Below, piece by piece: positions 26,372-27,509 of a stretch of DNA of 64,000 bases. The notes under the pieces are model-generated. The model did not search any database. It saw nothing but the letters and a program-made list of their open reading frames with translations, and was not told the origin of the DNA. Position 1 is the stretch's first letter. The number at the start of each line of letters is the position of its first letter. The position numbers and the translations under genes are program-made. Source of the stretch: a virus; IMG/VR virus record IMGVR_UViG_3300045973_000169, positions 13,000 to 76,999 of that record. One strand, 5' to 3'.

Positions 26372-26602
26372 ATGATAGGAAGAAGGAGAAGAACGTTGAC
26401 AATAATCCTTGATGAATATTATAAGTTCTATCGTAATTGGCATCAGAATCAGAAGCATCAATTACGTTTAGGGCAAGCTTTTTGGAATAAGTATCTTACT
26501 CATGCTACACAGGAAGAGGATATATTATTCTATGAGCCAAATACTGGTAAGGCTGAAGAGATTATCTTTAAGCATTATATAACGGAGCTTAAAAATGTTT
26601 AG
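26372..26602 (+). CDS. hypothetical protein (76 aa)
   Basis: ORF overlapping the next gene start. Confidence 0.45.
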   Translation: MIGRRRRTLTIILDEYYKFYRNWHQNQKHQLRLGQAFWNKYLTHATQEEDILFYEPNTGKAEEIIFKHYITELKNV

Positions 26603-27509
26603 TAAAATTCAAGTATTCCAAGGAGAAAATCCTGATGTTTGGAAGTATGTATTTGAGAAAGATGATATATGTGTAGAAGCTGTTCTCTATAGATATGAGT
26701 CTTTTCAGAAACGTACTGTTCTTTGTATATCAGTCCAGAGTGGTTGTCCTGTTGGATGTGTATTCTGTGGTACTGGTAAGAAGTTTATTCGTAATTTAAC
26801 TGCTGATGAAATACAATATCAAGTTGACCATGTAATTAATTGGGTTTCGTCTCAGATTGATTGGCCTCTTAACTCTGTTTGTGAAAAATTTCAGATTATG
26901 TTTATGAGTATGGGTGAGCCTATGCTTAACTGGTCTGAAGTAGATAAAGCAATTCGTAGATTGAATGATACATATCGTAATGCTCAATTGCTTATTTCAA
27001 CTATTGGAGTTAAGGACTACAGTGCATTTTTTAAACTATGTGATCTATCTCGTGAAATAGGTAAAGTTGGCTTACAGTTCTCTTTACATTCAGGTGATGA
27101 TGAAGAAAGAGATGAAATTATCCCATTTAAAAACAAGATGTCTATTCGTGAAATTAGAGATGCTGGTATTATGTGGAATAGTTATACTCATAGACCAGTT
27201 TACTTGAATATATGTGTGGATGAATTTAATCTTTCTCCTGAAGAACGTGAGAGGATTAAGGATTTGTTTCCCCCAAGTATATTTAGTCTTACGTTCTCTG
27301 TTATATGCGAATATGAGAATGGACAAGTAGTTAACCAAACTTTGAAAGATAAGATTGATAGGAAGATGCAAAATATCATGGCTAACTTCCTTTGTCATAG
27401 TTATAATGTTCGTAAGTTTGATCCTGCTGGACAAGATGATATTGGGGCTGGTTGTGGTCAACTTTGGTACACTCAATCATGGATGAAGGAACATTTTAAA
27501 GGTAAGTAA
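26595..27509 (+). CDS. radical SAM enzyme, RlmN/Cfr-like (304 aa)
   Basis: CISVQSGCPVGCVFCGTGKKF matches the RlmN/Cfr VSSQVGCxxxCxFCxTG signature with the CxxxCxxC cluster; shorter than bacterial RlmN. Confidence 0.7.
   Translation: MFSKIQVFQGENPDVWKYVFEKDDICVEAVLYRYESFQKRTVLCISVQSGCPVGCVFCGTGKKFIRNLTADEIQYQVDHVINWVSSQIDWPLNSVCEKFQIMFMSMGEPMLNWSEVDKAIRRLNDTYRNAQLLISTIGVKDYSAFFKLCDLSREIGKVGLQFSLHSGDDEERDEIIPFKNKMSIREIRDAGIMWNSYTHRPVYLNICVDEFNLSPEERERIKDLFPPSIFSLTFSVICEYENGQVVNQTLKDKIDRKMQNIMANFLCHSYNVRKFDPAGQDDIGAGCGQLWYTQSWMKEHFKGK

Follow-up and report, generated by a model that had tools for sequence, protein, structure and literature searches.

This locus raises the question of what a phage-borne enzyme that resembles RlmN and Cfr, and is truncated relative to RlmN, may methylate. 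It lies in a 64,000-nucleotide stretch of viral DNA (IMG/VR record IMGVR_UViG_3300045973_000169, positions 13,000 to 76,999), referred to here as the window, whose list of open reading frames (ORFs) places a single ORF with an ATG start and a 304-residue product at 26595..27509 (+). An initial annotation, made from the letters of the DNA, had described it as a radical S-adenosylmethionine (SAM) methyltransferase of the RlmN/Cfr type that might modify tRNAs, alter ribosomes during infection or confer Cfr-like resistance. The family assignment is upheld here, and a different view of the substrate is proposed: the best explanation overall, and a likely one, is a stand-alone class A core that C-methylates adenine in a differently bound substrate, probably in an accessory, counter-defence role.

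Sequence and predicted fold both assign the protein to the RlmN/Cfr (class A) superfamily of radical SAM methylases, a class defined by one radical SAM domain and two conserved cysteines (PMC9692996). Its short length is not due to a missed start, since a preceding in-frame stop is followed by the first start codon, at which the ORF begins. The stretch CISVQSGCPVGCVFCGTG, cited initially as the distinctive RlmN/Cfr arrangement, occupies residues 44-61 of the translation (26724-26777). Pfam returned the generic Radical_SAM family only (PF04055, E=2e-8, 35 bits against a cut-off of 29.5), and the best NCBIfam match was RlmN TIGR00048 (E=3.4e-31), followed by the Cfr models (2e-26 to 4e-24); beyond these, the closest radical SAM family was KamA (E=0.003), all others scoring no better, and the QueE-like family of PHROG reached only E=0.22. 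The PADLOC hidden Markov models (HMMs) for defence and anti-defence gave no match to the protein. A sequence search of the PDB placed Cfr (2.9e-15) about 2 bits ahead of E. coli RlmN (1e-14), and a homologue search returned thousands of matches, the best non-self one at E=4e-128. An alignment-based AlphaFold2 model (pLDDT 91.5, pTM 0.90) was used in place of a single-sequence model, which was discarded at pLDDT 45; the top 11 PDB fold matches of this model were all RlmN or Cfr (E 5e-17 to 7e-13), with SuiB next at ~1e-6 and viperin folds at ~1e-4. The exclusion of QueE, viperin and ribonucleotide reductase activase therefore stands, as the next families lie at E>=0.003 and the next folds at ~1e-6 against 5e-17 for RlmN, and the clustering with another radical SAM subfamily that had been named beforehand as refuting did not occur.

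The catalytic apparatus appears to be complete. In an alignment of the protein with E. coli RlmN (from NC_000913), three other RlmN and three Cfr variants, C44 corresponds to the resolving cysteine C118 of E. coli RlmN and C287 to the methyl carrier C355, so that the second cysteine pair, whose retention had been proposed as a check, is kept; the cluster cysteines C51/C55/C58 align with C125/C129/C132. Thirteen residues (E28, C44, C51, C55, C58, G107, E108, S163, H165, R172, C287, G288 and L290) do not vary between the phage clade, RlmN and Cfr, the catalytic set is likewise invariant in 60/60 close family members, and C44 and C287 are kept in nearly all of 116 superfamily sequences. The beta-sheet extension that precedes the core carries E28 (equivalent to E105 of E. 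coli RlmN), Y34, R40 and C44 (26724-26726), E28 and C44 being the invariant ones. The C-terminal loop bearing C287 (codon 27453-27455) exceeds that of RlmN/Cfr by 3 residues and contains the invariant F275, P277 and G279, the exact gap position being ambiguous. An additional cysteine, C207, is invariant in the 60-sequence close family and mostly kept in the wider clade, where RlmN/Cfr have L or M.

Because the whole of this apparatus is conserved, the ping-pong methyl-cysteine chemistry is expected to be conserved with it. The model proposes that the [4Fe-4S] cluster held by C51/C55/C58 binds SAM and that a first SAM donates its methyl group to C287, which lies on the flexible C-terminal loop, whereupon a second SAM would be cleaved to a 5'-deoxyadenosyl radical that takes a hydrogen from methyl-C287. 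The resulting methylene radical would attack an adenine sp2 carbon, either C2 or C8, and C44 would resolve the covalent adduct. Judged from its conserved residues, the protein is thus very probably an active class A methylase that delivers methyl to adenine C2 or C8 via methyl-C287, with C44 resolving. The regiochemistry is not inferable, since the branch point of the clade lies outside both enzymes and an RlmN-like R40 occurs together with a Cfr-like Y34.

Substrate recognition is a different matter. The truncation relative to RlmN noted initially is real: approximately 75 N-terminal residues, corresponding to the HhH2 domain PF21016 (RlmN_N), and the C-terminal tail are absent. PF21016 is found at residues 17-76 of E. 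coli RlmN (E=3.9e-32), whereas Pfam detected it neither in the 304-residue protein nor in neighbouring window proteins, and the alignment shows the entire domain to be gone. The structure of Cfr with an 87-mer, solved by cryo-electron microscopy, shows that the N-terminal domain (NTD) anchors on H91/H92 and is crucial for rRNA binding, likewise in RlmN (PMC13001441), and RlmN reads the tRNA D-arm and acceptor backbone besides the anticodon stem-loop (PMC5130265). The equivalog scores are low, with 108.5 bits against 290 for TIGR00048 and 71.7 against 633 for NF008396 among the RlmN models, and 93.2 against 530, 86.8 against 550 and 85.4 against 468 in the Cfr set (TIGR04432 / NF000424).

The RNA contacts of the core are replaced as well. 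Cfr core residues have been listed as contacting H90 and the U2504 phosphate (PMC13001441, preprint), and mapping of these contacts on the alignment shows that the H90-binding R184/R185 of Cfr become A130 and Q/E/D131 in the phage clade, that the four serines forming a clamp on the phosphate located 3' of the target (S103/S151/S153/S187) become V42/Q100/M102/L133, and that N288, the Asn that binds the target phosphate, becomes T233. The corresponding region of RlmN (R205/R206/T208, T116 and N306, in approximate numbering) is represented by A130, Q131, L133, V42 and T233, which are fixed in the clade. Q100 and M102, just 5' of the MSMGEP motif, are clade-specific, RlmN/Cfr carrying N/S and V/S at these positions. 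Seven substrate residues are reported as Cfr-specific (Y97, W101, S103, S151, S153, Q329 and F330), and single substitutions at W101, S103, S151 or S153 abolish resistance (PMC12887959); of the first five, Y97 alone is kept (Y34), the others being R40, V42, Q100 and M102, while Q329/F330 are not unambiguously alignable owing to the 3-residue loop insertion. Across the 116 superfamily sequences the pattern is two-state, in that all NTD-bearing proteins keep the canonical contact set and all NTD-less clades have lost it, the window clade having the fixed signature V42 Q100 M102 A130 L133 G159 Q161 T233 C238 F275 P277. The short forms also differ in charge, with a median isoelectric point (pI) of 6.0 against 8.6 for canonical forms. 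The protein is therefore not an orthologue of RlmN or Cfr, and with this failure of orthology the tRNA methylation, ribosome alteration and Cfr-like resistance first proposed lose their support, since they rested on it while the scores lie below cut-offs, the RNA anchor is gone and the contacts are replaced.

A missing domain might be supplied by a neighbour. A 76-residue ORF (26372-26602) overlaps the start of the gene, and 76+304 = 380 residues approximates RlmN, suggesting a split enzyme. This idea was rejected: the 76-residue ORF had no PF21016 match and no BLASTP similarity, hhalign against the NTD profile gave a probability of 0.08% compared with 98.3% for a leave-one-out positive control, homologues of the ORF were absent near other family members, and no NTD-profile match was found among ORFs flanking 146 family loci. 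The ORF itself, which encodes many basic residues and shares 8 nt with the beginning of the RlmN-like gene, is not called by the public gene caller. Clustering of ORFs from 84 loci revealed no obligate partner gene, and two downstream candidates, a 45-residue zinc-ribbon ORF and a 69-residue membrane ORF, were dismissed, neither being conserved at other loci. The enzyme is thus likely a stand-alone catalytic core that acts alone. As the HhH2 domain is absent and not supplied by a neighbour, and the contacts are replaced, the sequence argues that the substrate is likely recognised differently from A2503 or A37 in RlmN/Cfr.

By sequence comparison, the clade to which the protein belongs is large, comprises phage- or prophage-borne proteins of ~295 residues and is sister to canonical RlmN and Cfr, not nested within them. 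In a phylogeny built by neighbour-joining only, the window protein and the P0154-like clade group with 100% bootstrap support, the split between canonical and NTD-less forms has 67%, and the Cfr trio (100%) lies inside the canonical group. The exact 304-residue protein occurs on a JGI/Logan phage-like contig; its 120 best relatives are 51-66% identical and nearly all 291-317 residues long, and 60 representatives were found at E<=1e-30 in a 50%-clustered library of 1.84 billion proteins. A 462-kb uncultured phage carries a relative of 56% identity, and cultured carriers at 41-44% identity include Salmonella phage Arash, Stenotrophomonas phages ANB28 and BUCTxx99, Xanthomonas phage JGB6, Aeromonas phage Ahp1 and a group of 129-139 kb Vibrio phages. 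In BUCTxx99 and JGB6 the RlmN-like ORF is annotated as "prohibitin family protein", probably a mis-annotation. A pattern-limited scan of IMG/VR yielded 209 stretches with a family member, and ~75 of 185,579 species-representative genomes carry the gene, scattered over Firmicutes, Bacteroidota, Proteobacteria, Actinobacteria, Planctomycetes, candidate phyla radiation (CPR) and archaea-binned contigs; the Paenibacillus copy lies in an SPbeta-like prophage, adjoining Gad2. Members of the short clade were absent from 72,556 plasmids searched by tblastn, in which the matches were cfr/rlmN only, at <35% identity. In BFVD, two other NTD-less viral RlmN-fold proteins are found, one from phage 201phi2-1, both uncharacterised. 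No study of phage RlmN-like enzymes was found in the literature, and the NARP papers are silent on any radical SAM gene.

Table 1. Positions, in window coordinates, of the elements of the RlmN-like gene and of the genes downstream of it.
Feature	Position	Strand	Basis or remark
Ribosome-binding site GGAG	26584..26587	+	Direct sequence reading; 7 nt 5' of the ATG
NTD-less class A (RlmN/Cfr superfamily) radical SAM methylase, complete 304-aa ORF	26595..27509	+	ORF, NCBIfam, PDB sequence and fold matches
Beta-sheet extension, residues ~4-45, 5' of the radical SAM core	26604..26729	+	Model strands 4-9, 15-22, 25-34, 40-45; alignment
CX3CX2C [4Fe-4S]/SAM cluster motif, C51-C55-C58	26745..26768	+	Translation; invariant in phage clade, RlmN and Cfr
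MSMGEP SAM-binding ("GGE-like") motif, G107 and E108 invariant	26904..26921	+	Alignment
A130-Q131-L132-L133-I134-S135-T136, ST motif conserved	26982..27002	+	Contact mapping
C207, extra cysteine, end of beta5	27213..27215	+	Alignments
C238, extra clade-specific cysteine after beta6, in place of the canonical Asn of the (W/Y)NP motif	27306..27308	+	
C-terminal catalytic loop R273-K-F-D-P-A-G-Q-D-D-I-G-A-G-C287-G-Q-L	27411..27464	+	Alignments
Phosphoribosyl pyrophosphate (PRPP)-synthetase/Adps-like (Pribosyl_synth)	27818-28672	+	Pfam
Nuc_deoxyri_tr2	28672-29157	+	Pfam
NADAR	29141-29623	+	Pfam
NAMPT/Namat-like, 549 aa	29613-31262	+	Pfam

The surroundings of the gene are of interest with respect to its role. 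In the window, a ferritin gene and small ORFs are followed by the RlmN-like gene and then, by Pfam, by PRPP-synthetase-like, Nuc_deoxyri_tr2, NADAR, NAMPT-like and Band_7 genes. The bfr noted initially is indeed upstream, as 24970-25440 encodes a Ferritin-family protein; its suggested part as iron supplier was rejected, since among family loci the window's own contig is the only one with a ferritin homologue nearby. The genes between 27818 and 31262 could form a NARP1-type (Adps+Namat) or NARP2-type module that reconstitutes nicotinamide adenine dinucleotide (NAD+) against NAD-depleting defences. With 83 loci grouped into 28 lineages at 65% identity, a gene of the NAD, ADP-ribose (ADPR), PRPP or Nudix class lies within 300 bp in 8/28 lineages and within 1.5 kb in 12/28. 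The former compares with 5/28 for RNA-repair-type genes at the same distance, an enrichment of both kinds that weakens any claim of a NAD-specific context. The association with the NAD class is replicated in the genome set, with 6/63 loci within 300 bp (versus 2/63), and both the partner genes and their order differ from locus to locus. NatV (NMNAT-Nudix) abuts the RlmN-like gene in the two closest relatives; the Vibrio phages have the order PRPPs-NAMPT-RlmN-like gene, and a Methanobacterium-binned contig the order RlmN-like, PRPPs-like, NAMPT-like; stand-alone Nudix neighbours occur in Ornithinimicrobium and Saccharibacteria; and on one contig a protein with a fused Nudix domain (P0122) is encoded directly 5' of NAMPT and NMNAT. 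An obligate coupling to NAD+ salvage is ruled out, since the RlmN-like gene was found at 0/80 control NAMPT loci and most family loci are without NAD genes, and optional co-location remains. A specific linkage to tRNA genes was rejected by the same control set: tRNA genes are near 25/80 family loci and 29/80 control loci, distances to the nearest tRNA are roughly uniform, and many carriers have no tRNA within 10 kb. The "tRNA-centric" gene content that had first seemed a clue to function thus loses its force. The gene can defensibly be read as a stand-alone cassette that large phages carry in their accessory, counter-defence island, with an optional and reproducible tendency to adjoin NAD+/Nudix genes.

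Several further features of the window and of related contigs were observed. The tRNAs called by ARAGORN in the window are tRNA-Leu(TAA) (10721-10807) and tRNA-Met(CAT) (18324-18398) only, and an Rfam tRNA call at 17828-17909 (33 bits) is not in the ARAGORN output. Among related loci, a 135-kb viral contig has a 31-tRNA array upstream of its RlmN-like gene (L060:2723-9421), an individual case, as tRNA proximity is not enriched overall, and on a 208-kb viral contig a CTA-anticodon tRNA, called as tRNA-Pyl (amber suppressor), lies ~7 kb from the gene (L061:2821-2893), which could point to stop-codon recoding in that phage. An RNA-repair and tRNA-processing set in the window comprises HD_4 (33673-34173), an AAA_33 kinase (34166-34702), a metallophosphatase (36931-37653), an RNA ligase (38996-40471), a CCA-adding enzyme (42950-44170) and an RlaP nucleotidyltransferase (44920-46062), which together suggest a tRNA-repair counter-defence to anticodon nucleases. 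The Band_7/SPFH (prohibitin-like) protein downstream of the RlmN-like gene (31592-32467) has counterparts after NAMPT in the two closest relatives (L177, L178), and in L178 NAMPT is split by an inserted 205-residue ORF into NAMPT_N (123 residues) and NAPRTase (345 residues; L178:11243-13600), suggesting insertion of an intron or homing element. Upstream of the gene the window encodes a 458-residue DUF2828/DUF7788 protein (22602-23978), and farther downstream a 375-residue ThiF-family (E1-like adenylyltransferase) protein (55630-56757). The GC content is 43-48% over positions 1-10000 and 29-35% in the remainder; the former region holds a 1030-residue ORF (4156-7248) with no Pfam match and none in 50,697 phage records. 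Finally, a 759-residue protein (P0198), in which a different NTD-less RlmN-like core is fused to an HD domain of a defence-type dGTPase family (PADLOC 3.8e-46), was found in two independent samples (L092:724-3003 and L093:521-2800), with genes for histidinol dehydrogenase and aconitase on the same contig; this is a possible defence gene, in which a radical SAM methylase would be linked to the hydrolysis of dNTPs.

If the core acts alone on a differently bound substrate, the identity of that substrate must be weighed, and the candidates are ranked here with an adenine nucleotide, free or terminal and tied to NAD+/ADPR, first, followed by the canonical RlmN sites, other RNA sites and DNA. The nucleotide target is offered tentatively. 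Under it the enzyme would methylate ATP/dATP, ADP-ribose, NAD+ or an adenine-containing immune signal (ADPR or oligoadenylate), providing metabolite-level counter-defence beside the Nudix and NARP-type genes, and would be the first non-RNA class A enzyme. Such a target would jointly explain why the RNA anchors and the 3'-phosphate clamp are lost, why a Nudix fusion exists and why NatV, NAMPT, PRPPs-like and Nudix genes repeatedly lie directly next to the gene. The distal anchors are gone, the clamp serines of Cfr have become V/Q/M/L, and the clade is mildly acidic; the genomic indications are the P0122 fusion 5' of NAMPT and NMNAT, NatV in the two closest relatives, PRPPs-like and NAMPT-like genes next to the gene in the Vibrio phages and the Methanobacterium-binned contig, the Nudix neighbours in Ornithinimicrobium and Saccharibacteria, and the 8/28 lineages with a gene of the NAD/ADPR class within 300 bp, whereas NARP1 and NARP2, taken together, occur in 5.4% of sequenced phages. 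However, each of these independent supports is individually weak. The absence of the gene from the 80 NAMPT loci and of NAD genes from most family loci makes the coupling optional, the enrichment of RNA-repair-type genes means that co-location may reflect only a shared accessory island, the Nudix fusion was seen once only, and the HD/dGTPase fusion P0198 comes from a different NTD-less clade with more canonical residues and so carries little weight as a clue. In addition, RlmN-type turnover is slow for the destruction of signals, and we know of no class A enzyme with a non-RNA substrate. A number of further points likewise weigh against a departure from RNA or from RlmN-like binding. To our knowledge, the characterised class A enzymes all act on RNA, so that the prior favours RNA. 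Several of the contacts around the flipped nucleotide and U-turn are kept (Y34 = Cfr Y97, R40 = RlmN R114, R200 = Cfr R249, Y203 = Cfr Y252 and probably R273 = Cfr R327), and an RNA loop could therefore still fit. The argument from charge is weak because E. coli RlmN is itself near neutral (pI 6.6). The contact list derives from one Cfr/87-mer preprint and was transferred via an alignment of ~25% identity that is ambiguous in the C-terminal loop, and the neighbourhood counts rest on loosely defined gene classes, heuristic ORF calls and pattern-limited locus sets.

These retained contacts also bear on the possibility that the protein is a functional RlmN analogue, which would install m2A (2-methyladenosine) at A37 of host or phage tRNAs and/or A2503 of 23S rRNA via the core alone, and so keep translation accurate or modify phage tRNAs ignored by the host RlmN. 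This is conceivable but rather doubtful. TIGR00048 is the closest HMM family, R40 matches RlmN R114 and not Cfr W101, and the surroundings of the flipped nucleotide are partly kept; genes for tRNAs, a CCA-adding enzyme, RNA ligases and RlaP occur in the window and in many relatives, and in ANB28 the gene sits within a tRNA array. Many features of a tRNA are probed by RlmN (PMC5130265), so that phage tRNAs might evade the RlmN of the host. The same requirement speaks against a core that acts alone, as RlmN needs recognition of the D-arm and acceptor backbone, and chimeras that keep the anticodon stem-loop alone are poor substrates (PMC5130265). Moreover, the HhH2 domain is neither present nor supplied in trans, the TIGR00048 score of 108 bits falls short of the cut-off (290), other residues stand in place of the canonical helix and phosphate contacts, and tRNA genes are no commoner than near the NAMPT controls, at distances that look uniform, with many carriers lacking a tRNA within 10 kb. 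Methylation at other RNA sites is unlikely. Cfr-like C8 methylation of 23S A2503, leading to host-ribosome alteration or to resistance to phenicols, lincosamides, oxazolidinones, pleuromutilins and streptogramin A (PhLOPSA), was already disfavoured and is very improbable: although Cfr is the best single PDB match, by ~2 bits, and Y34 matches Cfr Y97, the 85-93 bits obtained with the Cfr models fall below cut-offs of 468-550, the NTD that anchors on H91/H92 is absent, the Cfr trio forms its own fully supported clade inside the canonical group, close relatives are absent from plasmids, and W101, S103, S151 and S153, single changes of which abolish resistance (PMC12887959), are R, V, Q and M. A post-replicative C-methylation of adenine in phage DNA, as a new hypermodification that protects against restriction, is improbable, if less so than the Cfr-like activity. 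Phages often repurpose RNA-modification enzymes for DNA, 7-deazaguanines being an example, the loss of RNA-specific contacts is compatible with a DNA substrate, and DNA ligase and 3'-phosphoadenosine-5'-phosphosulfate (PAPS)-reductase-like neighbours occur in some prophages. However, the protein is acidic without an added DNA-binding domain, has no conserved pathway partners, and is encoded by a single accessory gene scattered across unrelated phage types and not lineage-defining.

The view of the protein as a class A core acting on a differently bound adenine has consequences beyond this phage. As far as we know, no class A radical SAM methylases besides RlmN and Cfr have been characterised, and it is by their RNA targets that both are defined. 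The clade described here is very large, with thousands of metagenomic members, and keeps the methyl-cysteine radical apparatus under strong purifying selection but has discarded the RNA-recognition parts, its carriers spanning phages of Salmonella, Vibrio, Aeromonas, Stenotrophomonas and Xanthomonas as well as contigs binned to Firmicutes, CPR and archaea. Current pipelines annotate such proteins as "23S rRNA (adenine2503-C2)-methyltransferase", a label that is probably wrong, or at least unproven, for this clade, and in the surveillance of resistance genes its members should not count as cfr-like. The identity of the substrate would reveal one of two things: that phages re-tune tRNA or rRNA, or that their conflict with hosts involves a new modified nucleotide, possibly with a link to NAD+.

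Known systems place the protein in relief. Viperin and the prokaryotic viperins offer a functional analogy only, as radical SAM cores of similar size that act on a free nucleotide in host-virus conflict, with a remote fold match (~1e-4); they belong to another subfamily, catalyse dehydration and not methylation and are without the methyl-carrier cysteine pair, the window protein being much nearer to RlmN/Cfr (5e-17). The NTD-less viral RlmN-fold proteins of phage 201phi2-1 (B3FJU2, 302 residues) and of an uncultured Caudovirales member (A0A6J5RTK8, 284 residues) share the short architecture and fold (Foldseek E 6e-20 and 2.9e-14, TMq 0.74-0.76), but at 20-22% identity they fall into other NTD-less clades, whereas the window clade has a fixed signature of its own. 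With Cfr, which forms m8A (8-methyladenosine) at position 2503 of 23S rRNA and gives PhLOPSA resistance, the protein shares superfamily, fold, catalytic residues and three equivalences (Y97 = Y34, R249 = R200, Y252 = Y203); it differs in lacking the NTD, in having R/V/Q/M for W101/S103/S151/S153 and in scoring below all Cfr cut-offs, and its clade lies outside that of Cfr and is absent from the plasmids searched. RlmN (EC 2.1.1.192; m2A2503 in 23S rRNA, m2A37 in tRNA) is likewise similar in superfamily and fold (TMq 0.71-0.78), in CX3CX2C, in the cysteine pair C118/C355 = C44/C287, in the beta-sheet extension with E105 = E28, in the GEP and SxH motifs and in R114 = R40, and the ping-pong methyl-cysteine radical mechanism is presumably common to both. 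The phage protein is, however, only ~25% identical to it, has neither the HhH2 N-terminal domain nor the C-terminal tail, replaces the R205/R206/T208-type contacts and the Asn of (W/Y)NP, and has a catalytic loop 3 residues longer and two extra conserved cysteines. Further, RlmN is a universal housekeeping gene, whereas the clade of the window protein is phage-borne and sporadic.

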